46,860 nt of DNA from Kineosporiaceae bacterium (GCA_049283855.1 JBAPWU010000062.1:1-46860); one strand, 5' to 3'. Positions 7,456 to 46,505 are shown, counted from the stretch's first letter. A program made the numbers and translations. The notes: generated by a model not told the origin, from the sequence alone.

Positions 7456-7458
7456 GCC

Positions 7459-13630: not shown

Positions 13631-13656
13631 CGTCCTGCCTGAGAATCGGAAGGTCG
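13631..13656 (+). repeat. eroded copy of the tRNA-Phe anticodon-arm/variable region (old att remnant)
   Basis: CGTCCTGCCTGAGAATCGGAAGGTCG versus tRNA CGTCCGACTGAAAATCGGAAGGTCG. Exact 13-mer AATCGGAAGGTCG plus matching flanks, in the same orientation. Confidence 0.5.
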
Positions 13657-13761
13657 AGGCGCTCCTGCGTTGGCCCTGATCGTGCACGCCACCCCGGCAG
13701 GCACGTCTGCGCAGGAGACGCTCGACTTCCTTACCCGCCGGGCCGTCGGCCGCTGTCAGCG

Positions 13762-15009
13762 TCATCCGGCCCATAGCGCGTCCATCGGGACAGCGGTGAT
13801 CCGATCACCGAATGGAGCGGCCGTCGCCCCGGTGTGCAGGACCACTCCAGCGACGAAACGAACGCCGAGGCTGTCTCGCAATTGGGTCAGCCATCGGACA
13901 TCACGGCCGGAGACGCTCGAGGTTGCCTTCACCTCGATCCCGGCAACCCTGCCGTCTCCGGTCTCCAGCACGAGGTCAACCTCGGCGCCGCCGTGGTCTC
14001 GATAGTGATACAGACGCGCATCCTCGTCAGCCCAGGACAGCTGCCGCCGAAGTTCTCCGGCGACGAACCCCTCAAGGATCTGTCCAGCTATCAACGGGTT
14101 AGCCGCACCTGCAGCACCGGCAGGAGTCACGTTCACCAGCCGCGCGGCAAGCCCGGCGTCCAGGAGAGCAACCTTCGGACGGGACACCACACGCTTGGAC
14201 AGGTTCGTTGACCATGCCGGGATCCGGTGGACAAGGAACAGCGTCTCAAGCAGATCCACGTAGGGCGCCAGCGTGCGGACCGGGATCCCCGCATCACTTG
14301 CCAGCGAGGCCAGGTTCAGCTCGGCAGCGTTCCGGGCCGCGAGCAGCCGGAGCAGGCCGGGCAGCTCCGACAGGCGTTGCAGGCCGGACACATCCGGCGC
14401 ATCGCGCTCCACGACGCGCCGAAGGCAATTGTCCAGCCAGGCCGATCGGCGCCGTCCGGTGCGAGACAACGCCTCCGGGTAACCACCCGCACATGCCACG
14501 TCGATATAGTCCGGCCGGGTCATATCGCTGCGGTGGGCGGTGAAGTCCTCGCCCGCCAGGAGCCGGTCCACGAACCGCTCCCGCCTGCCCGACAGCTCTC
14601 CCTGGCTGAACCCGAACAGGTCCAGGCTCTCGGCTCGGCCCGCCAGGCTGTCCTGCATTGCGGGTAGCCGCAGCAGGTTCGCCGACCCGGTGAGCAGGAA
14701 GCGTCCTGGACGCTGGTCCCGGTCCACGACAAGCTTCAACGCGAGCACCAGCTCCGGAACCCGCTGCACCTCGTCGATCGCCAGCAGATCGTCCCCGGCC
14801 TGACCCAGAAACGCCACGGGGTCCAACTGGGCACCGGCACGAGTGGTCTCGTCGTCGAAGGTCACCAGCCGCCCGCCGACCTGATCCACCACATGCGACA
14901 CCAACGTCGTCTTGCCAACCTGACGGGCGCCCTGGACGACCACCACGCGCGTATCTGCCAGCGAGTCCAACACCGATGACGCCACATGCCGCGCAACAAC
15001 CTTCTTCAC
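13762..15009 (-). CDS. AAA+ ATPase with DUF4143/PD-(D/E)xK-like module, paralog 3
   Basis: Walker A GARQVGKTT, Walker B LAIDEVQ, C-terminal EVDLV...IEVKAT. Confidence 0.85.
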   Translation of the reverse strand: MKKVVARHVASSVLDSLADTRVVVVQGARQVGKTTLVSHVVDQVGGRLVTFDDETTRAGAQLDPVAFLGQAGDDLLAIDEVQRVPELVLALKLVVDRDQRPGRFLLTGSANLLRLPAMQDSLAGRAESLDLFGFSQGELSGRRERFVDRLLAGEDFTAHRSDMTRPDYIDVACAGGYPEALSRTGRRRSAWLDNCLRRVVERDAPDVSGLQRLSELPGLLRLLAARNAAELNLASLASDAGIPVRTLAPYVDLLETLFLVHRIPAWSTNLSKRVVSRPKVALLDAGLAARLVNVTPAGAAGAANPLIAGQILEGFVAGELRRQLSWADEDARLYHYRDHGGAEVDLVLETGDGRVAGIEVKATSSVSGRDVRWLTQLRDSLGVRFVAGVVLHTGATAAPFGDRITAVPMDALWAG

Positions 15010-18800: not shown

Positions 18801-19246
18801 TCCTTCGGCACCGCGACCTTGTCGTCCTGGATCGGCAGTCCGCCCTCGGCGATGTGGAACACCCCGGCGGTCGTGCGCCGGTCGTTGGCCGGGTTGTGCA
18901 GGACGCCATTGGCGAGCCGGTAGCTGGAGATCAGGCGCGAGGTGAACGCGTCGGAGTCGCGGGGCAGCGAGAGTTCCCGGGCGAGTCCCGGCTCGTCGAG
19001 CACCAGGGTGCGCCGTGGCAGTTGCGGCTGCACGGGGCTGTCCGCGAGGAAGGAGTCGAGGAACGCCTGGATGCGCCGGTCCGCCGCACACGGGCGGTCG
19101 GCAAGGCGTCGGCTCAGCTCGCGGTTGCGGGCCAGGACGGGGGAGACCAGACGGAACGGCTCCTCGGCGGCGGCGCCCGGGGGAAGTGGCAGCCCCGACA
19201 TGGCCAACCGCAGCATGATCGCGCTGGACCCGTGGACGTCAGACAT
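15818..19246 (-). CDS. 1142-aa protein, tentatively PPi-dependent phosphoenolpyruvate carboxykinase (EC 4.1.1.38)-like
   Basis: Uninterrupted high-GC3 ORF of about 126 kDa, the size class of PPi-PEPCK known from Propionibacterium, Actinomyces and Entamoeba. P-loop-like SGGGKSE and a conserved-looking block ADNYFGYCKKEVKTQISYAANLFG. The CDS is certain; the product call comes from memory of the family. Confidence 0.5.
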   Translation of the reverse strand: MSDVHGSSAIMLRLAMSGLPLPPGAAAEEPFRLVSPVLARNRELSRRLADRPCAADRRIQAFLDSFLADSPVQPQLPRRTLVLDEPGLARELSLPRDSDAFTSRLISSYRLANGVLHNPANDRRTTAGVFHIAEGGLPIQDDKVAVPKDVFARLLASALQPAADDLVLPWTATSPEPARTWVSLLLRPLVVPATAKVPVARSMETRFIVPGGLVANLDFVEGIFGNGGDPYLPENDASLTPVTWTGHTGCVILAPHLTTLTKQELGLPHLDQATDRQKRDGMCWATPDERYNRGQAFKVCARDARGVVVTVIADNYFGYCKKEVKTQISYAANLFGLAEEEHSGGAICYPSYNLGQEYTDTFTPAEYSINEVVTTNPDRFALQTEGHALDTRLAELILVPAGSSFSLPRRSVTWTGRSGEKFTIPLRAGHVYMTPNGYRVLAKPREADRTQWHLLGISPISTQCHKPATVSGGGKSEISKSLLDAFVFGHTAIQDFDSDIEAVAELIATDFADRYRDPSWNRDHRPILSPERSLGSVVKLLTPSPDFADAHNERLRAIPPHVKELLFLVKKYYRPEWGQDWRRHFSVSNINGRPGSRVRLDGELIIVNMLRMGFQQDGSWRLFTLRPDFSPAVKVQTEDDITASVVLPADEPPPDFSHRRGLQQARSEAAGQETLSRKYVANCEQLLFQRPDDAIHRGYDKQAERDIATPGTFLSNFAPITRPEATALVQDAVSFSRFTDPMKDLLARFAAGEGSPEYVASSSEPRLVGGRPSKNPRYLQVRPDRANPVATQLADIASHLLHHRPLAEFAPLAVDVVAAGRRNNAPEADAPALCSYNPLHYMELPELFMEFISSMTGKSPSTTGAGSEGALTKGPFNMLPSIIDLNASFLSYALTGYDGWISSAGFIGPRVRVDHDVSLLVPELFSRMSPRERDASWLRENGYLDAVPDVERNGRTVEAGRLGHRMNRRFATTFFARIFLHPDTVFTDEMLAPELQDADVYADSIEVIVETHRRVAQSFIDDDTIALAVPPLRSLLQFMATGASEEGWTVRSPELRAQFTRDSVLASSWYAQRLAAKQQYDVEHYKRAAARLERFQSGETNVDTAERLHVQRNLQQIHAELARVSKPAYQADLVGTLGLQPL

Positions 19247-25378: not shown

Positions 25379-26965
25379 TCATTGACCGAGGCCTCGCTGA
25401 TAGAGATCGACGGTCAGGGACACGAACTGGTGGTGGGCGACACGCGCGTAGCCGTCTTGCGGCAGGGTGAACTTGGCTGCGTCCGTGGGCGTGACGATGC
25501 TCGGTCCGAGCGCGTCGCTGTAGACCAGCCAGACGCGTGGAATCTGGTCGAGCCGTCGTGGAAGGTCCGCGGGGAGCACCTCGATGCCAGCCAGATTCTG
25601 CGCGGTGAGTGGATCGACCTCGAGCGCTACGTCGTCGAGTGCAGGTGCGTGTTGGGCATACCACGTGTCGATGGCGCGCAGAGTGTGCGGCGCATACAGC
25701 ACCGCATCGCCGGGTCGCGCCTCGGCGTCCAGCAACGCCACAGCTGCGCGGATGTCTTCGCCGTGACCAGCGGAAGGATCGCGGTAGTCCCGCTGAGCGG
25801 GAAGGCCCAGGGCTGCCACCAGCACCACCGTACCGGCCAGGGCCAGCGTCATGCTCGTTCGGGGACGCACGGAGCCTGGCGCCTTGCCCGCGGAACCCAT
25901 GGCAACGTCGCGGACCGCACCCGGCAGGGCTGCTACCCACAGCGCCAGGCCCGGCAGGCAATACACCAGGTAACGCACGTGCCAGAACGAGACGACCTGC
26001 GACAACAGCCACAAGGTCACCGCTGGTAACACCGCCCACGTCACTCCCAGAATCAGCGTCGCCGGCAGCGCCTCCACCGTCGCTCGGAGGTTCCAGCGTG
26101 CGCGCACCAGCCTGACCAGGACGACGACGACGGTCACCATCGCGATCAGCAGCGGCAGCGCCTTGGTGCCGAATGCGGAAATGTAGAAGCCGGTCAGGTC
26201 ATACACATGGGGACGAGTGGCCCACCTGACCTGCTCACGCTGCCCGAAGGCCCCTACCAGGTGCGGGCCGAGCACACCGACGGCCACCACGGTGACAGAC
26301 AGCCAACGGCCGATCGTGCCGCGCGCCCGACTCACCACGAACGCACCGTGGGCGACCAACAGCAGGAGGGCGAGCACGTTCACCGTACCGAGGAGCACCA
26401 CGGCGACCCCGTATCCCAACCACCACGGACCGGCCCTGCGCCCCTCGCTCGCACGCCACACCGCCGCCACGAGCAACGCCGTGGCCATGGCGCCCACCGC
26501 AGTGACGATGGCGAACGGCCGTGCTTCCTGGGCGTATCGAGAAGCGAGGGGGCTGACCGCAAGCACCAGGCCAGCGCTCACACCGGCCCCAGGCTCACCC
26601 AGACCCCGTCCCACATGCACCACGACGGCTGTCGCACCGGCCATCGCCACCACCGACATCAGGCGGATGGCCGTGACCGTGCCGGAGATCCCCAATACGA
26701 CGTGCGAGAGCAGATAGTAGGCCCGGTGCACAGCATCCACATGTCGAGTGAGCGCAATGATGTCGTGGACGCTGCGTCGAGCGATCGACAACGTGTCCAT
26801 CTCATCGCGCCACGGGCTCGGCGTGTTGACCCGCCAGACGTAGACCCCGGCAGCGGTCAGCCCCACCAGCAGCTCGGGCAGAGGAGACTTGAACCAGCCG
26901 AAGCCGCGCCCCACACGCGGGGTCCGGGACGCCATCCTGTCCACCCCTGAAATCCTCGACCTCAT
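25379..26965 (-). CDS. GT-C fold membrane glycosyltransferase (PMT_2/GT39-like mannosyltransferase-type)
   Basis: About 10 predicted TM helices, a W-R-DE-x-D-T motif after TM1 (SPWRDEMDTLSIARRS) and a soluble C-terminal domain. Start is 26965 or 26935. Confidence 0.65.
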   Translation of the reverse strand: MRSRISGVDRMASRTPRVGRGFGWFKSPLPELLVGLTAAGVYVWRVNTPSPWRDEMDTLSIARRSVHDIIALTRHVDAVHRAYYLLSHVVLGISGTVTAIRLMSVVAMAGATAVVVHVGRGLGEPGAGVSAGLVLAVSPLASRYAQEARPFAIVTAVGAMATALLVAAVWRASEGRRAGPWWLGYGVAVVLLGTVNVLALLLLVAHGAFVVSRARGTIGRWLSVTVVAVGVLGPHLVGAFGQREQVRWATRPHVYDLTGFYISAFGTKALPLLIAMVTVVVVLVRLVRARWNLRATVEALPATLILGVTWAVLPAVTLWLLSQVVSFWHVRYLVYCLPGLALWVAALPGAVRDVAMGSAGKAPGSVRPRTSMTLALAGTVVLVAALGLPAQRDYRDPSAGHGEDIRAAVALLDAEARPGDAVLYAPHTLRAIDTWYAQHAPALDDVALEVDPLTAQNLAGIEVLPADLPRRLDQIPRVWLVYSDALGPSIVTPTDAAKFTLPQDGYARVAHHQFVSLTVDLYQRGLGQ

Positions 26966-27351: not shown

Positions 27352-28353
27352 CTACCGCACCCCGGTCCCACGCTCACCCTCGCTCGCTGCAGCGGCTGCT
27401 TGGCCAGGTAGAGTGACTGCTTCAAGCGGATGATCGAACTGGAGTGTGAATGCTCTGGCGAGCAGGCTCACAGCGGTGAGCAGTGAGCAGACCAGGAGGG
27501 TCAATCCGATCAACTGCATGCTGTCCGACACGGCGGCCGCGGCTTTCAACGGCAACGAGTTCTCGCCGTACTGCTCCATCAGCTGGGACTTCACCGGCTC
27601 CATGAGAATCGCGCCGGTCACGTACACGACGCCACCCGGCATGAGCAGGCCACGCACTCTGGGGTGCATGGTGCGCAGGTTGCGGAGCAGGAACACCGAG
27701 GCAAGGGCGGCCATCGGTATGTAGACGATGGTCCACGCGTAGGCCAACGGACCACCGAGGTCGAAATGCTGGCGTAGCAGCTCGGCCAGCGACTGGTGAA
27801 GGTAGACCGTCTCGTCCATGAGCGCGAAGGCGGTACAGAAACCCAACAGCAACCAACCCGTGGCCGATCGGTCTGCCGCACGCCGCGCAGCTGTCCAACA
27901 GGCCGTCAGCAGCACCGTGGCTACCAGCAGCAAGAGCAGCTTCGCGCCGGTCGGGAAATTGACCTTGTAGTCGCCGTCGAAGAACCTCGTCAAGGTATAC
28001 GGCAGCACCCGCAGCGCGGCGCCGGCGCTGGCCACCCCGTCAGCCAGGACCAGGAGTCCGGTGAGACCCCATAAGGTCCGCTGGATCCGCCGCAACGGCA
28101 GGACGACCTGCACCGGGGCCCCCTGGACCAGCCGTTGCGACCGGGCACCCGAACGGCGGCCTGGTAACGGTCCGCGGACACCGCCGGGCTCCTGCCCGTA
28201 CGGGCTCGGCGGCGGATCACCTGGACGAACAGGCTCCGCGATTCCCACCGGGTCACTCATGGCCGTGCCATGCCGCGCCGCCGGCCGCGTGCGCCCCACA
28301 CGCTGACCTGCGCCCTCCTGAGGCGCGGGCTCGGATCCCGAGTCGAAGACCAT
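27352..28353 (-). CDS. polytopic membrane protein, unknown function, with a Pro-rich cytoplasmic N-terminus
   Basis: ATG at 28353 preceded by GGGAGGGGGG. 6-7 hydrophobic helices. Confidence 0.6.
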   Translation of the reverse strand: MVFDSGSEPAPQEGAGQRVGRTRPAARHGTAMSDPVGIAEPVRPGDPPPSPYGQEPGGVRGPLPGRRSGARSQRLVQGAPVQVVLPLRRIQRTLWGLTGLLVLADGVASAGAALRVLPYTLTRFFDGDYKVNFPTGAKLLLLLVATVLLTACWTAARRAADRSATGWLLLGFCTAFALMDETVYLHQSLAELLRQHFDLGGPLAYAWTIVYIPMAALASVFLLRNLRTMHPRVRGLLMPGGVVYVTGAILMEPVKSQLMEQYGENSLPLKAAAAVSDSMQLIGLTLLVCSLLTAVSLLARAFTLQFDHPLEAVTLPGQAAAAASEGERGTGVR

Positions 28354-28441
28354 CAGACCCCCCCTCCCGATCACTAATTGGTTATGGACGGACACCCTAC
28401 GACGGGTTAACGCTCTGTGGCAGCGATCTCCGTTCGATCAG

Positions 28442-28810: not shown

Positions 28811-30244
28811 GTGAGGTGGTGGCGCCGGTACGGCGGTGTCCGTGTGCGGTCCACCGTGGCGGCGGCCAGTGTGGTCGGGATCGCGCTGGTGATGGGGCTG
28901 CTCGCGGGGTGGTGGCTGCTTCGGCGCTCTCTGACGACCGCGGCGATCGACGCCGTCTCCGGCAGGAGTCAGGAAGTCGCCTCGCTCATCGCCAGCCAGG
29001 GCATCCGTGCGTTGGACCCGGATCGGCAGCCGGTCTTCGGAGAGGTCATCCAGGTGATGACCCCGGGATCGTTGGTGCTGAGCGCGGCACCGCCCTCGGC
29101 GCGGCGACTGCAGTTGAGGTTCACCGCGCCGACCGCCGGACATGCCACGGTAACCGAGGTCCCGGCGTTGCCGCAGTCGGGGGCCGACGAGCCGTACATC
29201 CTGGTCGCGCGGACGGTGCGCGACGGGCAGAGCGGGCAGCAGGTCGTGGTCGTAGTGGGGCGCAGCGTGGCCGGGCTGGCCGAGACCGCCGGTGCTGTGG
29301 GCCAGTTGACGGTGGTCGGCCTGCCGCTGCTGGTGTTCGTGACCGGGGCAGCGACGTATCTGTTCACCGGACGGGCGTTGCGGCCGGTGGAAGCGATCCG
29401 GCTACGGGTGCGGGAGATCTCCTCGCGTGGGCTGGCAGAGAGGGTGCCGGTTCCTGACGTCCGGGACGAGATCGGGCTCTTGGCCGAGACGATGAACGAG
29501 ATGCTGGCGCGCCTGCAGTCGGCCCATGAGGCGCAGCGGCGGTTCGTCGCCGATGCCGGCCATGAGTTGCGCAGCCCCCTGTCGACAATCCTGGTTGCGC
29601 TCGACGTCGCGCGCCAGGAGGCGAGTGCCGGATCATCCATGGATGGCCGGGTGCTGGACGACGTGGGTGCGGAATCGGCCCGGATGAGCCGGCTGGTCGA
29701 CGACCTGCTGCTGTTGGCACGTGCGGACGAGAGTGGTCTACGCATGAGGGCGGACGATGTGGACCTGGACGACCTGCTCGAGTCCGAGGCGCGCCGCCTC
29801 GCGGCGGACGGCACACGGCACGTGTCGTATGACACCGAGCCCGTCCGAGTTCTGGGGGACCGCGATCGGTTAGTGCAGGTGGTGCGCAATCTGACGGACA
29901 ACGCCGCGCGGCATGCACGTTCACAGATCCACCTGTCCGTCCGTTCCCGGCTGGGCTCGGCGGAGCTGCGCGTGGAGGATGACGGTCTGGGGATCCCCGC
30001 CCCTGACCGCGCGCGCGTCTTCGACCGATTCGTGCGTCTGGACGCTTCGCGACAGCGGGGTAGCGGCGAGTCCGGGCTCGGCTTGTCGATCGTCCGCGAA
30101 ATCGTGTCAGGACATGGTGGCCAGGTCGGTGTGGAGGTGAGCCGGTGGGGCGGCGTAGCGGCGGTCGTCCGGCTGCCGCTGCCCACGGCGGCGCCGGGGG
30201 CGGTCGCCGCGCACGGTCACCCGGCGTCGGGGTCCAGCCGGTAG
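28811..30244 (+). CDS. sensor histidine kinase (2 TM, HAMP, HisKA, HATPase_c)
   Basis: H-box AGHELRSPLSTI. N/G boxes (VRNLTDNAARHA, DDGLGIP, GLGLSIV). Confidence 0.9.
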   Translation: MRWWRRYGGVRVRSTVAAASVVGIALVMGLLAGWWLLRRSLTTAAIDAVSGRSQEVASLIASQGIRALDPDRQPVFGEVIQVMTPGSLVLSAAPPSARRLQLRFTAPTAGHATVTEVPALPQSGADEPYILVARTVRDGQSGQQVVVVVGRSVAGLAETAGAVGQLTVVGLPLLVFVTGAATYLFTGRALRPVEAIRLRVREISSRGLAERVPVPDVRDEIGLLAETMNEMLARLQSAHEAQRRFVADAGHELRSPLSTILVALDVARQEASAGSSMDGRVLDDVGAESARMSRLVDDLLLLARADESGLRMRADDVDLDDLLESEARRLAADGTRHVSYDTEPVRVLGDRDRLVQVVRNLTDNAARHARSQIHLSVRSRLGSAELRVEDDGLGIPAPDRARVFDRFVRLDASRQRGSGESGLGLSIVREIVSGHGGQVGVEVSRWGGVAAVVRLPLPTAAPGAVAAHGHPASGSSR

Positions 30245-30897
30245 CCGATGCCGCGCAGGGTCACGATCGAGTGGCGCGCGAACGGTGCGTCGATCTTCTT
30301 GCGCAGATAGCCGATGTAGACCTCCACGACGTTCGGATCACCGATGTACGGAGCTTCCCACACTGTGTCGAGGATCTCGCGTTTGGAGATGGCTTGCCCC
30401 TGACGGCGCAGGAGGTAGTCCAGCAGTTCGAACTCCCGCGGCGTGACGGCGATCTCGGCTTCGCCGCGGAAGACCTGTTTGGACACGGGGTCGAGCCGTA
30501 GGTCGCCGGCGGTGAGGTGGGCGCGCTGTTCGGGGGCGGACCTGCGGATGAGCGCCTTGAGGCGGGCCACCAGCACGACAAGGCTGAAAGGCTTGGTGAG
30601 GTAGTCGTCGGCGCCCAGGTCGAGCGCGTCCGCTTGGTCGTGTTCGCCGTCCTTGGCGGTGAGCATGAGGATCGGTGTCCACACTCCCTGGTCACGCAGT
30701 CGGCGCACGACCTCGTAGCCGTCCACACCGGGCAGCATGATGTCGCAGACGATGACCTCGTAGGGGCTCTCCAGCGCCGCCCACAAGCCGTCAGTGCCCG
30801 TGCCGGCCACATCGACGGTGAAGCCGGCGCCGAACAGGCCACGTTGGACCTGGTGCGCGAGACGGTCTTCATCTTCGATCAGGAGAACCCGCATCAT
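30217..30897 (-). CDS. OmpR/PhoB-type response regulator
   Basis: MRVLLIEDE...DIMLPGVDG...LMLTAKD receiver domain plus a winged-helix output domain (REFELLDYLL...LRGIGYRL). Confidence 0.92.
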   Translation of the reverse strand: MMRVLLIEDEDRLAHQVQRGLFGAGFTVDVAGTGTDGLWAALESPYEVIVCDIMLPGVDGYEVVRRLRDQGVWTPILMLTAKDGEHDQADALDLGADDYLTKPFSLVVLVARLKALIRRSAPEQRAHLTAGDLRLDPVSKQVFRGEAEIAVTPREFELLDYLLRRQGQAISKREILDTVWEAPYIGDPNVVEVYIGYLRKKIDAPFARHSIVTLRGIGYRLDPDAG

Positions 30898-31038: not shown

Positions 31039-32373
31039 ATGGCGACCGCCCTCGACACGCTAGACCCCACTCGGAAGCGACTCACGAAGGTCCCCGCGAT
31101 CACCGCCACGTTCTGGGTGATCAAGATCTTGTCGACGACGATCGGGGAGACGTTCGCGGACTACCTGAGCGTCAACGTCGGGCTCGGCCCGCTAGTCACG
31201 GACGGCATCGTCCTGGCAGCGCTGACGTTCGCGTTGATCAGGCAGATCCGGGCCGACCGCTACACGCCGTGGATCTACTGGCTGACCGTCGTCCTGGTCA
31301 GCATCTTCGGCACCCAGGTCACCGACTTCCTCACCGACACCCTCGGTGTCAGCCTCTACGTCAGTACCACGGTGTTCACGGTGCTCCTGGCCGTCGTGTT
31401 CTTCATCTGGCACCGACAGGAGATGACCCTGTCGATCACCTCTATCAACACTCCACGCCGTGAGGCGTTCTACTGGGGCGCCATCCTGACCACCTTCGCG
31501 CTGGGTACCGCAGCCGGGGACCTGGCCACTGAAGCGCTGAACCTCGGTTTCCGTAACGGGGTGCTGATCTTCGGCGCCCTGTACCTGGCCGCGTTGGCGT
31601 TATCCGGGGTCCGGGTATTGCAGGTGCTCTCGTTCTGGGTCGCCTACATCCTCACCCGACCCCTCGGCGCCTCGCTCGGTGACCTGCTCACCCAGGACCG
31701 CCAGTACGGCGGCCTCGCCCTGGGCGCAACCCTGACCAGCGTGCTGTTCTTCACGGTGATCGTGGTGCTGGTCGCCCGTGAACAGGTGCTCGCCCACCGC
31801 TCAGGCATCGCCGAGAAGGGCGCCACCCCGCTCGGCGGTCGCCGCAGCGACCGGCTCTGGGCAGCCGCCGGAGCGATCGCGGTCGTCGGGTTCGGAGCTT
31901 GGTTCACGACCAACGCGGCCGCCGACACCACCACGACCACCGCCCCCGCTTCCGCGGCCAGCCCCGGCGCGGCCACATCGGCACTGCCCACGCCGCACCT
32001 CTCGCCCAGCGCGGGCTCCGATGCTGGTCCCAGCGCCCAGCCCACCGCTCCGGCAGCCGTTCACGCCAGGGGGCCGGTGTCCAAGCTGGGGAACCTGACC
32101 TCGTTCAGCACGATCGTCGCCGATGTCACCGCCAAGACCGCCGCGGGTGACCTGACTGCCGCCACGACCCGCGTCAAGGACCTCGAAGTAGCCTGGGACG
32201 GCGCCGAGGCGGGCCTGAAACCCCGCTCCCCCAATGACTGGCACGCGATCGACGACGACATCGACGCCGTCCTGACCGCCCTCCGCGCAAGCCAACCCAC
32301 GCAGGCCGACAGCCTGGCCGCCCTGCACGCACTGCAGTCCACCCTGAACACCCTCCAAGGTCTGCGGTCATGA
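31039..32373 (+). CDS. COG4705-like polytopic membrane protein with an extra C-terminal extracytoplasmic helical domain
   Basis: KVPAITATFWVIKILSTTIGETFADYL...TRPLGASLGDLL. After the last TM comes a Thr/Ala/Pro linker and a helical domain of about 100 aa. Confidence 0.7.
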   Translation: MATALDTLDPTRKRLTKVPAITATFWVIKILSTTIGETFADYLSVNVGLGPLVTDGIVLAALTFALIRQIRADRYTPWIYWLTVVLVSIFGTQVTDFLTDTLGVSLYVSTTVFTVLLAVVFFIWHRQEMTLSITSINTPRREAFYWGAILTTFALGTAAGDLATEALNLGFRNGVLIFGALYLAALALSGVRVLQVLSFWVAYILTRPLGASLGDLLTQDRQYGGLALGATLTSVLFFTVIVVLVAREQVLAHRSGIAEKGATPLGGRRSDRLWAAAGAIAVVGFGAWFTTNAAADTTTTTAPASAASPGAATSALPTPHLSPSAGSDAGPSAQPTAPAAVHARGPVSKLGNLTSFSTIVADVTAKTAAGDLTAATTRVKDLEVAWDGAEAGLKPRSPNDWHAIDDDIDAVLTALRASQPTQADSLAALHALQSTLNTLQGLRS

Positions 32374-33197
32374 CGACGAGCACCCCAAGTGCCGCCGGGC
32401 ACAGCGTGTGGCCGGAGCCGACAGCGATGAAGGTCCCCCAGATCACGGTCACGTTCTGGGTGATCAAGGTCTTGACGACCGGCACCGGAGAAGCCGCCTC
32501 GGACTATCTCGCCGCACACAACCTCCGTATCGCGGCCACCCTTGGCCTGCTCGGGCTTCTCGTCGGGCTCGCGTTCCAGCTACGAACGCGGACCTACCAG
32601 CCCTGGGCGTACTGGCTGGCCGTCTCGATGGTGGCCGTGTTCGGCACTATGGCCGCCGACGCGCTCCACGTCATCGCCGGGATCCCGTACACCGTCACCA
32701 GCATCGCCTACGCCCTCGCCGTGGCTGCCGTGTTCGGCGTCTGGCACCGCTCCGAGGGAACCCTCGACATCCACAGCATCATCACTCGCCGCCGCGAGGG
32801 GCTCTACTGGACCGCGGTCCTGGTCACCTTCGCGCTCGGCACCGCGGTCGGTGACCTGTCAGCCATCAGCGCCGACCTAGGCTACCTCGCGTCGGCCCTC
32901 CTGTATGCAGGCATGATCGCCGTACCCTTCCTGGCCTGGCGGCTCGGCGCCAACCCGGTCCTGACGTTCTGGGCGGCCTACGTCCTGACCAGACCCCTCG
33001 GGGCGTCGGTCGCGGACTGGCTCGGCAAGCCCGCCGACCGCTCCGGCCTCGGCCTGGGCGACCTGCCCGTGACCGTCGTAGCCACTGCAATGATCATCAC
33101 CCTGGTGGGCTGGACCGCTCGGCCGCAATGGGAAGCTGCGCTGCCGCAGCGCCACGATCCTGCTCGAGTCGATGCCCGTGACCGCGCAACGTGGTGA
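32370..33197 (+). CDS. COG4705-like polytopic membrane protein (paralog of the upstream gene)
   Basis: KVPQITVTFWVIKVLTTGTGEAASDYL...TRPLGASVADWL. The ATGA overlap with the upstream stop indicates translational coupling. Confidence 0.7.
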   Translation: MTTSTPSAAGHSVWPEPTAMKVPQITVTFWVIKVLTTGTGEAASDYLAAHNLRIAATLGLLGLLVGLAFQLRTRTYQPWAYWLAVSMVAVFGTMAADALHVIAGIPYTVTSIAYALAVAAVFGVWHRSEGTLDIHSIITRRREGLYWTAVLVTFALGTAVGDLSAISADLGYLASALLYAGMIAVPFLAWRLGANPVLTFWAAYVLTRPLGASVADWLGKPADRSGLGLGDLPVTVVATAMIITLVGWTARPQWEAALPQRHDPARVDARDRATW

Positions 33198-40170: not shown

Positions 40171-41742
40171 ATGCCGCAGGACCTCGAGATCCTCGTCGAG
40201 CCGTACGAGGACGAGATCACCAACCGGATCGCGCACTGGCGTGACGTGCTGGTGCGGCACGATCGCGTCCGCGAGGGCCTCGGCGACGCCGACCCTTCGA
40301 CGCTCCAGATACTCGGCCCACACCTGCCCGGCCGCAAGCGGGAGGAGTCCTCCCCGTTCGTCGCCACGGTGTTCGACCCGGGGGAGAACCGCGCGGTCGA
40401 GGTCCGGGGACGGCTTGACGCCGATGAGGTCGAGGTGACGTCGAGCGCCTTCCGGCCGAACCCGACCGAGGAGGAACTGCGTGCGGCGGCCGGGATCCTG
40501 CGCGCCGACGAAGGCTTCGCCCGGCTGCGCGAACGGGACGACGTCGTGGTCTACCAGCCGATGCCTCCGCTGTCGGACGCCGAGCGGGACGACGGCACGA
40601 CGGCCCGTCGGATCGGGCTGGCCGTGTTCGACCCGGCCGCCGAGCAGCCCCACCGGTACGCGGCGGTGGACATCGGCGAGCGGCTCGTCGAGTGGGACCC
40701 GGGCTGGTTCCATGCGCTCGACGGGGACTGCGAGGACCACCTGCCCGTCGGGGTCGAGTCCCTCGCCGACGCCGGTGGTCGGGACTGGGTCCGGGTCCGG
40801 GTGATCCGCGGTGGCGAGGAGCTGTGGAACCTCGTCGTCGTTCGCCCACGCGCCTCCGCCCCCACCCACGTCGGCAAGGGTTCGGGTGTCGAGCTCAAGT
40901 ACGTGACCTACCGCGGCCGGCTCGTGCTGTGGCAGGCCCACGTTCCGATTCTCAACGTGCTCTACGACGACGGAGTCACCTACAGGGACTGGCAGAACCA
41001 GGAGACCCCGTTCCTCGCCGACGGCTTCGACCCGGTCGGCCCCGGATGGCGGGTGTGCACCTCACCGCCGGCGACCATCCTGGAGTCCGGCACCGACGCC
41101 GGGAACTTCCAGGGCGTCGCCCTGCACTACGCGGACGGCGAGCTGCGGATCGTCAGCGAGGTCCAGGCCGGCTGGTACCGCTACATGTCCGACTGGCGAC
41201 TGCGCGACGACGGCACGATCGCACCGCGGTTCGGCTTCGCCGGCACCCGCAACCCTCGTACCTGCATGCGCCACCAGCACCACGTGTACTGGCGCCTGGA
41301 CTTCGACATCGACGGTGCCGGGAACGATGTGGTCGAGGAGCGGGGCCTGTCCCTGCCGGGCCGTCCCCTGTGGTGGCGGCTCGTCCGCGAGACGAAGCGC
41401 AAGCGGACCCTCTTCGCGCGGCGGTGGCGGGTCCTGGACGCCCGCACCGGCCGCGGCTACCGCATCAACCCCGGCTCGGCCGACGGCACCGCGGACGGCT
41501 ACGGCGTCGCCGACCTGTGGTTCCTGCGCTACCGGTGGACCGAGCTCGACGACGGCGTCAGCGTCGTCGGCGGAACGCCCACGGACACCCAGTGCCGGCT
41601 CGACCAGTACCTCACCGGGGAGTCGATCGACGGCACCGACGTCGTCATCTGGTACGCCGGGCACTTCGTCCACGACGAGGAACACCCCTCACCGCATCAG
41701 GGCCACATCGTCGGCCCCGAACTGCGGCCCATCAACTGGTAG
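40171..41742 (+). CDS. divergent copper amine oxidase (CAO)-like protein
   Basis: CMRHQHHVYWRLDFDIDGAGNDVVEE parallels the CAO block HQH-x-F-x-x-RLD-x-x-IDG-x-x-N-x-V-E (two Cu ligands). DVVIWYAGHFVHDEE parallels the third-His block. GWYRYMSDWRLRDDGTI sits where CAOs have G-N-Y-(D/E)-Y...DG-I. No signal peptide. Confidence 0.6.
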   Translation: MPQDLEILVEPYEDEITNRIAHWRDVLVRHDRVREGLGDADPSTLQILGPHLPGRKREESSPFVATVFDPGENRAVEVRGRLDADEVEVTSSAFRPNPTEEELRAAAGILRADEGFARLRERDDVVVYQPMPPLSDAERDDGTTARRIGLAVFDPAAEQPHRYAAVDIGERLVEWDPGWFHALDGDCEDHLPVGVESLADAGGRDWVRVRVIRGGEELWNLVVVRPRASAPTHVGKGSGVELKYVTYRGRLVLWQAHVPILNVLYDDGVTYRDWQNQETPFLADGFDPVGPGWRVCTSPPATILESGTDAGNFQGVALHYADGELRIVSEVQAGWYRYMSDWRLRDDGTIAPRFGFAGTRNPRTCMRHQHHVYWRLDFDIDGAGNDVVEERGLSLPGRPLWWRLVRETKRKRTLFARRWRVLDARTGRGYRINPGSADGTADGYGVADLWFLRYRWTELDDGVSVVGGTPTDTQCRLDQYLTGESIDGTDVVIWYAGHFVHDEEHPSPHQGHIVGPELRPINW

Positions 41743-41752
41743 CGGCGGCAGA

Positions 41753-43810
41753 TCAGCCGGCCACCGCCTGGGCGCGGCGCTCCAGCGCGAGCTCGCGGAT
41801 CCTGGCGATGTCCTCCGCGGTGTAGGCGCCATTGACGCCGGAGATCAGGGCCAGCTTCATCCCGTGCTTGAGGCCCAGCTGGTAGATCTCCTTGACCTTC
41901 TCCCACTCGATGTCGCGGCCGACGGTGAAGGTCTCGTAGCGCCCCTCCAGGGCCAGCACGACGGTCTCGGCCAGGCAGGCATAGGCCACGCCCTTCGGAA
42001 GGCCGATGCTCTTCATATTCACGTCGCCGGGCAGCTCGATCTCACCGGACTCGACCACGAGGACGTCGGGACGCTTGGCCACGTCCTCTGCCGAGAGGTC
42101 CAGCGGGCGCGCCACGTCCGTGATCACGCATCCTGGCTTGACCGCCATGATGTCCAGGACGCGCCGACCGGCCCCCGAGGTCGCTGTGACGATGAGATCC
42201 ATGTCCTCGATGTGCCCGTTGGGAGTTGCCGCGACGTGGATCTCGGCCCGGGGGTTCCCTCGTTCGATGTCGTGCTTGAGGGCCAGCAGCTTGGCCGACT
42301 CGGGCGAGACCAGCCACAACTCATCAGTGGACAGGGCCAGCAGCCTGGCGCAGACCGAACCGATGGCCCCGCTGGCGCCCACGACCATGGCCTTGCCCTT
42401 CATCCGTCCCTGGTCGTCGACCTCGGCGAGCCCGAGTTGCAGCAGCGCCTCGTGCGCTGCCCACAGAGCGCCGGAGGCGCTGTAGCTGTTGCCGGTCGTG
42501 ATCGGCAACGGAGCCCGCTTGGCCACCGTCACGCCCGCGTCACCGACGACCTTGGTGAACGCGCCGAGCCCCATGACCTGCGCGCCGAGCTTCCGCGCGG
42601 TCTCGGCCGCCGCGAGCAGCCGTCCGTAGGTGAACTCGGGATCGTGGGCCATCAGTTCCTTGGGGGTTCCCCCCACCGTGATGAGCCAGCCCTCGGCCTC
42701 GGCGCCCGTGGGTGACTTGATGCCGGTGACGTGGCTGTAGGTGAACGGCGGCGAGTACGCCATCGCCTTCTCCACCACGTCCATCACCACCGGGGGCGAC
42801 ATCCTGGTGATCGTGCCGAGTGGCTCGACGTTTCGGAAGTACTCCTGCGACAGCGGGTGGATGACGAAGGCGAACCTGCTCTTCCGCTTGGGCCCGTTCG
42901 GGTAGAGCACCCGGGGCTCCAGGCCCGCTGAGACGATCATGTCGAGCAGATCGTCGTTGGTCAGGCGCCCGCTGCTGGAGGTGATGGCCAGCATCATGGC
43001 CTCGAGGACCGCCGCCGAGACGGTGACGGGGAAGGGCTGAGGAGTGGCGTCGAGCACCATGTCCACGCCGCGGCCGGCCATCTCTGCGAGCCGGTCGTCG
43101 GAGATGGCCGAGGTGACGACGGTCTTGCCGGCCAGATCCTCCAGCCCGAAGCCGGTCAACTCGTCGTAGGTGGCAACCACCACATCGCAGTCGCGTGCGG
43201 CCTTGCGCGCCATCGCGTGGCTGATCCGGTGGCCCGGCGCATTGATCTGGGACTGCACCTGACCCGGGAGCCTCCGGACCGGCCACAGCGCCATCTTCGC
43301 CGCCAGTCCCAGGACCGGGTGGGAGTCGAGCCTGGCCGGCAGATCCAGACGCAGCAGCGGGTCGGCGAACTCCAGGTTCGGGGTGAACTCGCGGAGGATC
43401 CGCGTGGTCCGGTCGTGGTTCACGCCGCCGAGAACCACGATCCGGGCGTTGTTGAAGAACCCCGGCATCTCGGTCTGGACGTGCCGGATCGCCCACTCCT
43501 GCAGGACATCGCGCAGTGCGTGCCCTGCCGTCACGGGTACCGCCGAGGCGGCGTGCATGACCCGCTCGATCGCCTTCAACTCCCCGTCGTACAGCCCGGC
43601 GGCCCGCGCCTCCCGGATGCCGGTGACGGCGATCGCGGCGGCTTGCTCGGCCCACGTGCGGGCGAGCGCCTCCGCGGCGGCGACGTCACCGTTGGTCCCC
43701 ACCCGCACGATCCGGAAGGCGTGGTTGAGGAAGGTGACGTGCTCGTCGTAGTCCCGATCCGACCCCATGAGGCTGACGTTGACGACGAGCGTGGGTGTGG
43801 GCCTTGGCAT
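41753..43810 (-). CDS. fusion protein: N-terminal domain of the family often annotated quinate 5-dehydrogenase, plus a C-terminal acyl-ACP reductase (AAR, EC 1.2.1.80)-like NAD(P) domain
   Basis: ATG at 43810 with AAGGAG upstream. N-terminal half: LVVNVSLMGSDRDYDEHV...RVGTNGD. C-terminal half: FVIHPLS...LGAFTKVV...TTGNSYSA...VVGASGAIGSVCARLL...YACLAETVVLALEG...FTVGRDI, co-linear with my memory of Synechococcus AAR. Confidence 0.7.
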   Translation of the reverse strand: MPRPTPTLVVNVSLMGSDRDYDEHVTFLNHAFRIVRVGTNGDVAAAEALARTWAEQAAAIAVTGIREARAAGLYDGELKAIERVMHAASAVPVTAGHALRDVLQEWAIRHVQTEMPGFFNNARIVVLGGVNHDRTTRILREFTPNLEFADPLLRLDLPARLDSHPVLGLAAKMALWPVRRLPGQVQSQINAPGHRISHAMARKAARDCDVVVATYDELTGFGLEDLAGKTVVTSAISDDRLAEMAGRGVDMVLDATPQPFPVTVSAAVLEAMMLAITSSSGRLTNDDLLDMIVSAGLEPRVLYPNGPKRKSRFAFVIHPLSQEYFRNVEPLGTITRMSPPVVMDVVEKAMAYSPPFTYSHVTGIKSPTGAEAEGWLITVGGTPKELMAHDPEFTYGRLLAAAETARKLGAQVMGLGAFTKVVGDAGVTVAKRAPLPITTGNSYSASGALWAAHEALLQLGLAEVDDQGRMKGKAMVVGASGAIGSVCARLLALSTDELWLVSPESAKLLALKHDIERGNPRAEIHVAATPNGHIEDMDLIVTATSGAGRRVLDIMAVKPGCVITDVARPLDLSAEDVAKRPDVLVVESGEIELPGDVNMKSIGLPKGVAYACLAETVVLALEGRYETFTVGRDIEWEKVKEIYQLGLKHGMKLALISGVNGAYTAEDIARIRELALERRAQAVAG

Positions 43811-43848
43811 GGTGACTCCTTGGGTTGTGCTGCCCTCCGGCTGCGTGC

Positions 43849-44943
43849 TCAGACCATCGCCGAGGAGTCGATCTCCGGATGGTCGATCATGAAGTCCAGC
43901 AGCCGGCCGGCGTAGCTCTCGAACGGTGGGCACTCCACCCCCGTACCGGCGAGGTCGGCGACCGTGTTGACGGTGGAGTAGGTGGTCGACGAGGCGAAGT
44001 AGTCCAGCAGTTCGGCCGGCAGTCCGAGCAGGCGCTCCAGCCCCGGCACCGAGCCGAGCACGAAGCGGGTGATGCCCAACGGCAGCGGCACCCAGATCAA
44101 CCGCTTCCCGAGGTGGCCGGCGAAGATGTCGGCGACCTGGCGGGCCGTCGGCGGGTTCGGGTCCGTGAGGGCATAAGTCCGCCCGACCGACCGGTCGAGC
44201 ACGGACAACTGGTCCATCGCATCGATGACGAAGTCGCGGGGAACCAGGGACGTCTTGACGCTGTCCGGGACGGCGGGGAGCACGGCCACAGGGAGTTGCC
44301 TGCGCAGGAACGTCGCCACGAAATAGGGACCGTCGTACTTCTGGGTCTCACCGGTGTGGGAGTCGCCGACGACGATCCCCGGTCGGTAGACCGTCGCCGG
44401 GAGGCCGTCCGTGATCGCTTTGCGGACGAGCATCTCGGCTTCGAACTTCGTGGACTCGTAGTGGTTGTAGAAGGTCTGCCCCTCATCGAGAGCATCCTCA
44501 GTGAACTCGCCCTGATACCGCCCACTGACATAGCAGGTGCTGACGTACTGCAACCTGCGCAAGTGCGGGAGCGACCTGCAGTACTCCAGGACCTGCGCCG
44601 TCCCGGTGACGTTGACCCGACGCGCCACCGCTTCGGGGACTGTCAGGTCGTAGATCGCCGCCAGGTGCCAGACCTCGGTCACCTCGTCGAGGACGTCGTT
44701 GGACGCCGGGTCGATCCCCAGGCCAGGGCGAACGATGTCGCCCTCCACCAGGTCGATCCGGTTCAGCGTGTGGGGATGATCGGCTTCGATCTCATGGACT
44801 CGACGCCGCGCCGTCGCCAGGTGCTGGGGCTGGACCACGCAGATGGCCCGCACCCCTTCGCGACGGGCCAGCAGACGGGGAAGCAGGGCAGAGCCGAGGA
44901 AGCCGGGGAACCCGGTCAGCAGCAGTGCAGTCACGCGATTCAC
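43849..44943 (-). CDS. SDR-superfamily reductase, NAD_binding_4 / thioester (fatty acyl-CoA) reductase-like
   Basis: LLTGFPGFLGSALL Rossmann motif, YESTKFEAE (YxxxK), 38 nt upstream of the AAR-like gene on the same strand. GTG start. Confidence 0.8.
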   Translation of the reverse strand: MNRVTALLLTGFPGFLGSALLPRLLARREGVRAICVVQPQHLATARRRVHEIEADHPHTLNRIDLVEGDIVRPGLGIDPASNDVLDEVTEVWHLAAIYDLTVPEAVARRVNVTGTAQVLEYCRSLPHLRRLQYVSTCYVSGRYQGEFTEDALDEGQTFYNHYESTKFEAEMLVRKAITDGLPATVYRPGIVVGDSHTGETQKYDGPYFVATFLRRQLPVAVLPAVPDSVKTSLVPRDFVIDAMDQLSVLDRSVGRTYALTDPNPPTARQVADIFAGHLGKRLIWVPLPLGITRFVLGSVPGLERLLGLPAELLDYFASSTTYSTVNTVADLAGTGVECPPFESYAGRLLDFMIDHPEIDSSAMV

Positions 44944-45140
44944 CTTTCGAGGTCATCGGCCGAAGCCGCCACGCCCACGGTCACGGCGATCCGGTAGTCC
45001 CTCGACCACTACCCGATGCTATCGCGAGGGTGACGGCGTCGGGGGTGGCGCTCGTGGTGATCACCTGTCGGCCAGGGCCGGAGGTGCGCACGACGACGAT
45101 GGGCGCCCCCCGCTCAGGCCCCACCCGTAGGCTCTCGCCC

Positions 45141-46505
45141 ATGAGGCAACCGATCCCGGAGGGTCTGATTGCCGCTGCACACAGGACCCTCGAGGTCAAC
45201 CGCCTCAACGGCCTGACCGTGCCGAACCTGACGATGTTCCGGGCGGGGTACCTGTGGGACACCGCCGTGATCGCCAAAGGGGTCGCCGTCCACGACCCGG
45301 AACGGGCGGCCGGTGAGCTGATCCGTTTCCTGCAGGCGCAGTGGCGCTCGGGCATGCTGCCGAACGAGGCCTACTTCGAGGGCCAGAAGATCAGGCGGCG
45401 GCTGCACGGGCGCCACCCCGACAGCCCCCACGGCGTCACCACGAGCGGGATCACCCAACCGCCGATGATCGTCAGATCGGCGCTCGAGGTCGGCCGCCGA
45501 CTGCCACGCGACCGGCGCACCGCCTTCTACGGATCCGTGGTCCCCCGGCTGAAGCGGCTGTGCCGGTGGGTGCTGGAGGAGCGGGTCGGGGCGAACGGGC
45601 TGGCCGTGGTGATCCATCCCTACGAGACGGGGATGGACAACCGGATCGACCTGGCCGAGGCGATGGCGGACGAGTGGCTGCTCGGCGGCGGGCTGGTCAA
45701 CGGATCGGCTCATCGCGGCACGCTGCGCGCACTCGACGCCATCCGCCGTCTGTGGGGGGACCTCCGGACGGTGCCCATGGCACACCGGTCCAGCAACCAT
45801 GACGTGCTCAGGGCGTATCTGCAGACCCGACACATCCGCCGGCTCGGCTACGACCTGGCCGCGATCGAGGCGAGCGGCCACGGACTGCTGGTGGAGGACG
45901 TGGGGTACAACGCCGTCCTCGTCGACGCCTTCCGCTGCCTGGACGAGCTGACCGACGACCTTCCGCGCGGCGCCGGCCCGGAACTCACGCTCGAGCCCGA
46001 GATGCGAACGGGGATGGGCCGGGTCGCACAAAGCCTGGAGACCCTCTGGTGCGACGGCACCGACGGCAGACGCGGCGGCTACTACAGCCGCAACTACCGC
46101 ACCGGCCGGCTCAGCCTGCGCCCGACCATCGCCGGGCTCTACCCCCTGCTCGTCGACGGCGACGCCGAGCGGACGAGGATCATGGTCCAGACCCTGGTCG
46201 ATCCCTCGACGTACTGGACCCTGGTGGCGCCGCCCAGCGCACCGATCGACTCCGAGGGGTTCGCCCCGGACGAGTACTGGCGAGGCGCGGCCTGGTCCTT
46301 CCCGACCGACATCATCGAGACCGGGCTCGAGCTGCGCGGGGAACGGGAGATCGCCCAGGAGCTGCGCCTGAAGTACCTCGCCAGGCCGTACGGGATCGAG
46401 CACGCCGAGTACGAGAACCCGTTGACCGGTGCACCGCTGGGGGCCAAGCCCTTCTCCCCCGCGGCCGCGCTGACCATCCGGTTCGCTGCCCTGGAAGGGC
46501 TCTAG
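45141..46505 (+). CDS. GH63-like (alpha/alpha)6 glycoside hydrolase (glucosylglycerate/mannosylglycerate-hydrolase type)
   Basis: YLWDTAVIAKG..., GITQPPM, VIHPYETGMDN and EYWRGAAWSFPT blocks. Start at the internal ATG 45141. Confidence 0.6.
   Translation: MRQPIPEGLIAAAHRTLEVNRLNGLTVPNLTMFRAGYLWDTAVIAKGVAVHDPERAAGELIRFLQAQWRSGMLPNEAYFEGQKIRRRLHGRHPDSPHGVTTSGITQPPMIVRSALEVGRRLPRDRRTAFYGSVVPRLKRLCRWVLEERVGANGLAVVIHPYETGMDNRIDLAEAMADEWLLGGGLVNGSAHRGTLRALDAIRRLWGDLRTVPMAHRSSNHDVLRAYLQTRHIRRLGYDLAAIEASGHGLLVEDVGYNAVLVDAFRCLDELTDDLPRGAGPELTLEPEMRTGMGRVAQSLETLWCDGTDGRRGGYYSRNYRTGRLSLRPTIAGLYPLLVDGDAERTRIMVQTLVDPSTYWTLVAPPSAPIDSEGFAPDEYWRGAAWSFPTDIIETGLELRGEREIAQELRLKYLARPYGIEHAEYENPLTGAPLGAKPFSPAAALTIRFAALEGL

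Follow-up and report, generated by a model that had tools for sequence, protein, structure and literature searches.

A candidate two-gene acyl-thioester reduction system in a Kineosporiaceae bacterium, combining an AAR/PigE-type fusion protein with an NAD_binding_4-type reductase

We analyzed a 46,860-nucleotide (nt) stretch of DNA from Kineosporiaceae bacterium (GCA_049283855.1, JBAPWU010000062.1:1-46860; hereafter the window, with a base composition of about 69% GC), focusing on two adjacent minus-strand open reading frames (ORFs) that encode a short-chain dehydrogenase/reductase (SDR) and a two-domain fusion protein whose C-terminal half resembles acyl-acyl carrier protein (ACP) reductase (AAR). 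Gene 1 (43849-44943, minus strand) encodes a 364-aa extended SDR of the NAD_binding_4 type and starts with a GTG codon preceded by GAAAGG. Gene 2 (41753-43810, minus strand) encodes the 685-aa fusion protein and starts with an ATG codon 6 nt after AAGGAG, a ribosome-binding site lying in the intergenic spacer (43811-43848, minus strand). Read directly from the sequence, this spacer is 38 nt long, as had been stated in a first-pass annotation of the window made from the sequence alone. A mechanically generated ORF list gives a 726-aa version of gene 2, starting from a GTG at 43933, which we rejected as an upstream extension; we take 685 aa as the right length of the fusion protein because homologues, which are 683-695 aa long, align from Met1.

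The pair is flanked by a convergent Cu-amine-oxidase-like gene (40171-41742, plus strand) and a divergent MGH1-like glycosidase gene (44925-46505, plus strand), and therefore stands as a self-contained two-gene unit. The 38-nt spacing implies that the two genes are co-transcribed; a simple promoter and terminator scan of positions 41400-45400 returned no sites. The Cu-amine-oxidase-like neighbor matches the catalytic domain over its last ~120 residues only (41 bits), making it atypical or truncated, and is not kept beside the pair in other genomes.

The C-terminal half of the fusion protein (C-half; residues 312-685; 41756-42877, minus strand) comprises a complete AAR/PigE-type acyl-thioester reductase module. 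Residues 312-678 match positions 1-360 of 837 in the NCBIfam PigE model (NF053554) with 181 bits, and residues 353-652 match positions 37-335 of 339 in the AAR model TIGR04058 with 64.9 bits (E 7.8e-18). Neither score reaches the equivalog cut-off of its model (850 for PigE, 449.7 for TIGR04058), and the fusion protein has no aminotransferase domain. In a phmmer search of the PDB, PigE (4ppm) was matched at E 6.9e-29, AAR (6jzq) at E 1.5e-12 and TAD, the terminal amidation domain of the carmabin/vatiamide nonribosomal peptide synthetases (NRPSs), at E 0.004; Pfam gives this half weak Rossmann matches only. The first-pass annotation had described the C-half as co-linear with cyanobacterial AAR on the strength of four motif blocks, all of which are aligned by HMMER: GLGAFTKVVG with ALGGFTSIIF of AAR, ITTGNSYSAS with FTTGNTHTAY, VVGASGAIGS with VVGATGDIGS, and YACLAE with FACFAE. 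A domain search against the AAR and NAD_binding_4 families, suggested there as a check, gave significant matches to both, although the AAR equivalog cut-off was missed and PigE turned out to be closer.

The proposed correspondence between the Cys of YACLAE and the AAR nucleophile is borne out by the HMMER alignment, in which, by counting, Cys612 (codon 41975-41977, minus strand, within VAYACLAET) falls on AAR Cys294 and on the Cys of the PigE block GCMAET, and we predict that it is the acyl-enzyme nucleophile. AAR C294 is the residue that carries the acyl-enzyme thioester (PMC7089970), and C296 is the corresponding Cys of PigE (PMC8341465). The sequence GASGAIG (residues 478-484; 42359-42379, minus strand) is aligned with the dinucleotide-binding loop of AAR, 162-GATGDIG-168, which has the form GX(1-3)GX(1-2)G (PMC7089970). 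Two further signature blocks are marked by family conservation, GLGAFTKVVGDAG (residues 414-426) and PITTGNS (residues 436-442), together spanning 42485-42571 on the minus strand; on a reading of the motifs, the TTG of PITTGNS corresponds to the Thr-Thr-Gly of TAD, which contacts the catalytic Cys (bioRxiv 10.1101/2024.10.28.620694). The basic pocket of AAR for the NADPH 2'-phosphate and the CoA 3'-phosphate (R189/R193/R314; PMC7089970) is aligned with P503, K507 and R632. Position 504, next to the R189 equivalent Pro503, is Arg in most of the family and Glu in the clade of the window protein. All catalytic and cofactor motifs are kept in the window fusion protein.

The residues with which AAR docks to aldehyde-deformylating oxygenase (ADO) are not kept (R73 is replaced by D390, R79 by G396 and K80 by R397), and, as the first reading of the sequence had it, no ADO-like gene accompanies the pair: no ADO-family Pfam match was found among the ~30 window ORFs scanned.

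Structure prediction places the C-half in the same superfamily. An AlphaFold2 model built with 20 diverse homologues as input (pLDDT 86.5, pTM 0.83) was matched by Foldseek to AAR (6jzu/6jzq, E 2e-18 to 6e-17, TMt 0.68-0.76) and to the carmabin TAD (9e4s, E 3e-18). The next dehydrogenase followed at E 7e-8 and quinate and shikimate dehydrogenases at ~1e-4; glutamyl-tRNA reductase (GluTR) was not among the top 50. The C-half groups with AAR, PigE and TAD (E 1e-12 to 1e-29) rather than with shikimate- or GluTR-type enzymes. By sequence, fold, Cys, TTG and Gly-rich motifs it belongs to the AAR-like/COG5322 superfamily, which includes AAR, the N-terminal part of PigE, KecF-type fusions and TAD. 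Its TIGR04058 score, the unconserved ADO-docking residues and the lack of an ADO gene among the scanned ORFs all speak against the fusion protein being an AAR orthologue; of the characterized proteins, the one nearest to it is the reductase domain of PigE.

The N-terminal half of the fusion protein (N-half; residues 1-305; 42896-43810, minus strand) has no match in Pfam, NCBIfam or the PDB, whether searched as a single sequence or as a profile. Its AlphaFold2 model (pLDDT 85.9) is a domain of two alpha/beta lobes, for which Foldseek returned generic two-lobed proteins only (TM <= 0.52), including TAD (TMq 0.52), AAR (0.45), glutamate dehydrogenase, malic enzyme, ATCase and periplasmic binding proteins. 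A profile search found stand-alone homologues of ~300 aa (96% coverage, ~250 bits) in Armatimonadota, Chloroflexota, Thermincolia and other hosts, several of which bear the NCBI name 'quinate 5-dehydrogenase', the family to which the first-pass annotation had assigned this half. An hhalign comparison of the stand-alone family with the fused N-half gave E 9e-70. The stand-alone family has a mean column identity of 58% and many invariant polar residues; G96, D150, K229, P257 and E270 are common to it and to the fused N-half, in which many other polar residues are lost. Two of these shared residues, D150 (in FADP, 43358-43369, minus strand) and K229 (in GKTV, 43118-43129, minus strand), are invariant in both the fused and the stand-alone alignments.

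The stand-alone family (P0306-P0370 in our protein set; L082-L086 in our set of loci) has neither a Pfam model nor a solved relative, and is marked by the motifs SLGSSxRD, ERIGTDGD, ELDGQVDA, TPVVDGxGLKNTLER and GRSFGTN. Its genes were seen beside an Asp/Glu racemase, beside a methyltransferase, and beside an NTP-transferase and a PAP2 phosphatase. The name 'quinate 5-dehydrogenase' appears to be unfounded for this family. None of the three contexts examined has an adjoining AAR-like gene, and the fusion therefore does not simply join a common split pair. We also compared the two halves of the fusion protein with each other. The fused N-half and the C-half profile align colinearly over 245 columns (hhalign score 42, E 5.9e-5; 17 shuffle controls scored at most 33). 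An origin of the N-half by duplication and decay of the AAR module is only a weak possibility, however, because the stand-alone family scores at background against the C-half (23, with controls at 15-24). The N-half possibly has a docking, regulatory or ligand-binding role.

The SDR matches the whole profile of PF07993 (NAD_binding_4) with 168.2 bits, where the cut-off is 20.1. Further matches of the SDR are to the N-terminal half of the NCBIfam model PRK07201 (251.5 bits; cut-off 549 not reached) and to the thioester-reductase subfamily model TIGR01746 (132.4 bits; cut-off 213.35 not reached), and its relatives in the PDB are terminal reductase domains of polyketide synthases (PKSs) and NRPSs (MxaA, 8v1x and the R domain of Mycobacterium tuberculosis Nrp). 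The TGxxGxxG and YxxxK motifs are present as TGFPGFLG (residues 10-17; 44893-44916, minus strand) and YESTK (residues 162-166; 44446-44460, minus strand). By its PF07993 score and motifs, the SDR is of the thioester-reductase/fatty acyl reductase type, in agreement with the first reading, and we propose that it serves as an aldehyde-to-alcohol reductase partner of the fusion protein.

Relatives of the fusion protein are numerous. A word-indexed search gave 4514 matches, of which the best 120, besides the window's own sequence and one of 663 aa, are ~685 aa long and 81-88% identical; an exhaustive search of representatives at 50% identity gave 3091 clusters at E <= 1e-3, of which 476 reach E <= 1e-30. 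Proteins with both domains at full length are found down to 29-35% identity, beside stand-alone C-half proteins of ~360-430 aa. The nearest relatives at the protein level belong to Nocardioides, Phycicoccus, Dermatophilaceae and similar Actinomycetota. To survey genomic loci, we took the best 80 of at least 594 relatives found in a scan of one genome per species. Their hosts are Actinomycetota (Nocardioides, Gordonia rhizosphera, metagenome-assembled Mycobacterium genomes, Ilumatobacteraceae, Nitriliruptoraceae), Gammaproteobacteria (Marinobacter, Ketobacter, Oleiphilaceae, Vreelandella, Lysobacteraceae) and Betaproteobacteria (Rhodoferax and other Burkholderiales), and the family also occurs in anaerobes. 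The two-domain protein is thus ancient and widespread, not peculiar to the window genome. The only matches in a plasmid collection were PigE-type aminotransferase fusions that cover the C-half; it contained no full-length relative. JGI labels relatives 'predicted amino acid dehydrogenase', which is the CDD label of COG5322 (PMC10829540).

Among the 67 two-domain representatives in which the Cys612 column is occupied, 56 have Cys. Representatives without it include P0123, P0124, P0132, P0148, P0158, P0192, P0222, P0228, P0233 and P0249, which may be pseudoenzymes or catalyze another reaction; no SDR accompanies P0148 (Desulfobacterales), and P0222 keeps a DUF3419 gene downstream.

We then counted the genes next to the fusion gene at 81 loci, using tblastn with five neighbor queries and confirmation by Pfam and NCBIfam. 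These counts are not phylogenetically independent, a concern that is lessened by the occurrence, across phyla, of three partner types and of two opposite arrangements of the wax-ester synthase/diacylglycerol acyltransferase (WS/DGAT) gene. An SDR of the window type lies directly upstream on the same strand at 34 of the 81 loci, all in actinobacterial hosts, with a gap of 5-127 nt in 33 cases and of 264 nt in the remaining one (L033); three of these loci (L021; L022, from Nocardioides sediminis; and L054) have a WS/DGAT gene directly downstream, that of L021 scoring 353 bits with TIGR02946, above the cut-off of 310. A classical SDR (adh_short) takes the place directly downstream at 12 loci (Ilumatobacteraceae, Acidimicrobiales, Dermatophilaceae and Intrasporangiaceae). 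Here the WS/DGAT gene is found directly upstream, at seven of the 12 and also at L020, which has no match to the classical SDR, bringing the loci with WS/DGAT (PF03007 and PF06974) beside the fusion gene to 11, eight upstream and three downstream. A Pfam-confirmed Fe-alcohol dehydrogenase gene is divergently adjacent, 53-474 nt away, at 14 beta- and gammaproteobacterial loci. An aldehyde dehydrogenase gene is divergently placed at three loci (L020, L027, L028). Two Ilumatobacteraceae loci have a sulfatase-family gene directly upstream (L040, 5324-6970; L049, 5177-6901), with the classical SDR still downstream. Alkane hydroxylase and beta-oxidation genes were not seen beside the pair in the loci examined, nor were PKS, NRPS, carrier-protein or aminotransferase genes seen beside it in the window or at the 81 loci.

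More distant members (30-40% identity), examined one by one, again have an SDR of the NAD_binding_4/epimerase type immediately upstream. At two such loci, L088 and L089, the partner SDR is related to the window SDR over its full length (28-33% identity), so the pair has a long history of joint inheritance; at L089 the SDR and fusion genes overlap by 4 nt. A DUF3419 gene, from the family of the betaine-lipid synthase BtaA/BTA1 (PMC10685587), accompanies these members, usually as the immediate downstream neighbor, and further genes nearby encode a DAGK_cat lipid kinase, AMP-binding, alpha/beta-hydrolase and formyltransferase-like proteins. As an observation in its own right, the conserved cluster around these distant members (L088, 3033-8040; L089, 534-8018; L091, 1-8185), which encodes DAGK_cat, DUF3419, Formyl_trans_N, AMP-binding and alpha/beta-hydrolase proteins, has the appearance of a biosynthetic pathway whose lipid product is as yet undescribed; a MacB/FtsX-type ABC exporter and a TP_0789-like protein are also encoded at L088 and on the contig of P0222.

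From the homology, retained motifs, fold, family breadth and neighborhood patterns described above, we infer the substrate class, the direction of the reaction, the division of labor and the role of the N-half. The reading that we favor, to which we give about even chances, is that the SDR/fusion operon is a two-step acyl-thioester reduction system feeding the synthesis of lipids, probably storage or membrane lipids, in which the fusion protein yields an aldehyde and its partner an alcohol. Three unrelated aldehyde/alcohol oxidoreductases swap as the partner, and therefore the product or substrate of the fusion protein should be an aldehyde; most simply, an aldehyde made (or, less likely, consumed) by the fusion protein is converted by the partner. 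Aldehyde formation from a thioester has been reported for the homologous domain of PigE (PMC8341465), and the WS/DGAT, BtaA-like and lipid-kinase neighbors suggest that the substrates are long-chain lipids and that the direction is biosynthetic. A route from thioester through aldehyde to alcohol had been put forward in the first-pass annotation, and the swapped oxidoreductases and abutting WS/DGAT genes lend it independent support.

In this system, going by homology, a fatty acyl chain would first move from ACP or CoA onto Cys612, where NAD(P)H bound at the GASGAIG loop would reduce the acyl-enzyme and a fatty aldehyde would leave. Gene context suggests that the NAD_binding_4 SDR would then reduce the aldehyde to a fatty alcohol, probably by direct hand-over. 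Direct transfer of the reactive aldehyde to the following enzyme is common to AAR, PigE and GluTR (PMC8341465), and by analogy the tight, sometimes overlapping gene pair suggests that the same may happen here. At loci with an adjoining WS/DGAT gene the alcohol would be built into wax esters, and in clades with BtaA-like and lipid-kinase neighbors into other lipids. The N-half would be a non-catalytic or differently functioning accessory domain drawn from a free-standing protein family.

Several observations weigh against this reading. Neither WS/DGAT nor any other lipid gene adjoins the pair in the window, and about 20 of the 81 loci, including all four from Marinobacter, have no informative neighbor, some of them on contigs that end near the gene. 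Glu504 in the window clade blocks a reading of the cofactor preference and of the preference for CoA or ACP. Eleven of the 67 two-domain representatives have G, E, T, A or S instead of the Cys, mostly together with a degenerate GAFTKVVGDAG block, and therefore part of the family must do something else. Enzymes of the NAD_binding_4 type can themselves reduce thioesters, some of them to alcohols, so that the division of labor between the two proteins could be reversed or redundant. Our literature search found no experiment on any family member.

The same genes could work in the oxidative direction. The partner would then oxidize a fatty alcohol arising from alkane or wax-ester breakdown, and the AAR-like module would act as an acylating aldehyde dehydrogenase, forming a thiohemiacetal on Cys612, passing hydride to NAD(P)+ and delivering the acyl group to CoA or ACP, which would save the ATP of an acyl-CoA synthetase. 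Both Fe-alcohol dehydrogenase and SDR partners are reversible, the hosts include Marinobacter, Ketobacter, Oleiphilaceae, Gordonia, Mycobacterium and Nocardioides, all of them known for alkane or lipid degraders, and the divergent aldehyde dehydrogenase genes of L020, L027 and L028 would fit such a scheme, as would, weakly, Glu504 of the window clade if it favors NAD+. We nevertheless regard this direction as unlikely, since the characterized relatives AAR and PigE are all reductive, the WS/DGAT, BtaA-like and lipid-kinase neighbors are biosynthetic, and the loci examined place no alkane hydroxylase or beta-oxidation genes beside the pair. The absence of PKS, NRPS, carrier-protein and aminotransferase genes by the pair in the window and at the 81 loci bears in turn on a second possibility, that the substrate is a specialized one bound to a carrier protein and that the fusion protein is an off-loading enzyme, like PigE, KecF or TAD, of a small natural-product or unusual-lipid pathway. 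Such a role would suit the kinship of the C-half, whose nearest characterized relative is the PigE reductase domain, whose structural match to TAD is equally good and whose plasmid relatives are all PigE-type aminotransferase fusions; the best PDB relatives of the SDR, too, are PKS/NRPS terminal reductase domains. The recurrent neighbors, however, are general lipid enzymes, and the module is compact and conserved at 55-88% identity across orders and phyla, unlike accessory biosynthetic clusters, which makes this role decidedly unlikely in our view.

A different division of labor would make the SDR the real thioester reductase and the 685-aa protein mainly a scaffold, regulator or acyl shuttle acting through Cys612; in a variant, the N-half may be a degenerate AAR-like copy that forms an internal pseudo-dimer. 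According to their family annotation, NAD_binding_4 enzymes reduce thioesters unaided, and the Cys-less subset of the family would be at home in this arrangement. For the variant, the hhalign score of 42 between the two halves (controls at most 33) and the presence of TAD (TMq 0.52) and AAR (0.45) in the Foldseek list of the N-half can be set against the background score of the stand-alone family with the C-half (23, within the controls of 15-24). However, no catalytic or cofactor motif is missing from the window protein, and classical SDRs or Fe-alcohol dehydrogenases, which cannot reduce thioesters, serve as the partner at 26 loci, so we consider a purely supporting role for the fusion protein very unlikely. 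Finally, the database labels ('predicted amino acid dehydrogenase', 'dehydrogenase', 'quinate 5-dehydrogenase') would make it an ordinary amino-acid, shikimate or quinate dehydrogenase. Shikimate dehydrogenase models do match, at 14-16 bits, through the Rossmann part alone; these matches are limited to residues ~470-570 and face cut-offs of 221-295 bits, the PDB sequence search returned no shikimate, quinate or amino-acid dehydrogenase, such enzymes stand 10-14 orders of magnitude behind AAR and TAD by fold (Foldseek E >= 1e-4), and the N-half matches nothing in Pfam, NCBIfam or the PDB. We consider the identity given by the labels effectively refuted.

Bacterial fatty-alcohol and wax-ester synthesis is ascribed to NAD_binding_4 and Acr1-type acyl-CoA reductases, and AAR is usually seen as the cyanobacterial entry point to alkanes. 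A two-step reduction by the fusion protein and its partner would provide a second path from fatty-acid synthesis to aldehydes and alcohols, one that is possibly ACP-linked; if real, this path would bear on the storage-lipid physiology of soil, marine and wastewater bacteria and offer new parts for oleochemical engineering. The broader proposal, which we put forward tentatively and hold at somewhat less than even confidence, is that heterotrophic bacteria possess a widespread, unrecognized system, with the window pair as its first example, in which an AAR-type acyl-ACP reductase, permanently fused to a novel accessory domain, channels its aldehyde to a dedicated reductase. The system would supply fatty alcohols for wax esters in Actinomycetota and, in combination with BtaA-like and lipid-kinase genes, undescribed lipids in other phyla. 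If true, the N-terminal domain, together with its free-living 'quinate 5-dehydrogenase' family, would constitute a new functional domain class. The analysis also defines a ~300-residue domain family without a Pfam model and corrects two misleading names, 'quinate 5-dehydrogenase' and 'predicted amino acid dehydrogenase'.

Elsewhere in the window, positions 5101-15009 hold a mobile or defence-like island with a phage-type integrase (5101-6513), a DUF7639/NADAR protein (7671-8525), a Fic/DOC protein (10974-11906) and three paralogous AAA_14+DUF4143 ATPases (9023-10345, 11955-13226 and 13762-15009). A 1142-aa ORF at 15818-19246 (minus strand) is probably a real gene, with a third-position GC content of 0.93, and matches no Pfam family at E <= 1e-5; Pfam matches are likewise absent for a 528-aa ORF at 25379-26965 and a 347-aa ORF at 27352-28395. 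Two adjacent DUF347-repeat membrane proteins are encoded at 31039-33197 (plus strand), adjoined by a divergent two-component system (histidine kinase, 28811-30244; response regulator, 30217-30897).

AAR-like domains have been described outside cyanobacteria in PigE (PMC8341465), in KecF/PpKT-type transaminase fusions (PMC10829540) and in TAD (bioRxiv 10.1101/2024.10.28.620694). The first-pass annotation had held that neither the fusion nor its pairing with an SDR was described. This stands insofar as we found no publication on either; a literature search of incomplete coverage yielded nothing on the 685-aa architecture, the SDR pairing or a link to wax-ester synthase. It does not extend to the AAR-like domain itself, and the fusion is not confined to the window genome. 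One other candidate relative, TabE from Streptomyces, described as a 'novel acyl-ACP reductase', was ruled out as an enzyme of the aldehyde dehydrogenase type.

With AAR (EC 1.2.1.80; 6jzq/6jzu) the fusion protein shares the three-part module, the fold, the catalytic Cys (C294/C612) and the GxxGxxG motif, with R632 and K507 aligned to R314 and R193, and presumably the chemistry of an acyl-enzyme thioester followed by hydride transfer. It differs in its low identity (~23%), its extra 305-residue N-terminal domain, a partner that is a reductase rather than an oxygenase, its heterotroph hosts and the lost ADO-docking residues. PigE, from the MAP pathway of Serratia prodigiosin synthesis (4ppm), has the same Cys, TTGNS-type and Gly-rich motifs and likewise a reductase fused to a second domain, with the aldehyde presumably passed on to the next activity (PMC8341465). 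The second domain of PigE, however, is a C-terminal class-III aminotransferase, whereas the window protein has an N-terminal extra domain and a separate SDR; and PigE is encoded in a pigment gene cluster, whereas the family described here forms a compact module near lipid genes. TAD of the carmabin/vatiamide NRPSs (9e4s-9e56) resembles the C-half in its invariant Cys beside the nicotinamide and in its TTG motif (bioRxiv 10.1101/2024.10.28.620694), but is the last domain of an NRPS module, owes its specificity for NAD to an Asp and shows marginal similarity to the window protein in sequence.

The partner SDR corresponds to the N-terminal half of PRK07201-type fatty acyl-CoA reductases, with the same TGxxGxxG and YxxxK motifs; it is a single-domain protein of 364 aa without their C-terminal adh_short half and, unlike them, is always encoded with an AAR-like fusion protein. 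We take the PRK07201 model to cover enzymes such as Maqu_2507 of Marinobacter and Rv3391 of M. tuberculosis, which act in wax-ester synthesis. The stand-alone 'quinate 5-dehydrogenase' proteins are homologous to the N-half over its whole length, but are free-standing and better conserved among themselves than the fused N-half. Set against these systems, the catalytic module of the fusion protein is familiar; its N-terminal domain, its dedicated reductase partner and its apparent role in the lipid metabolism of heterotrophs are not.

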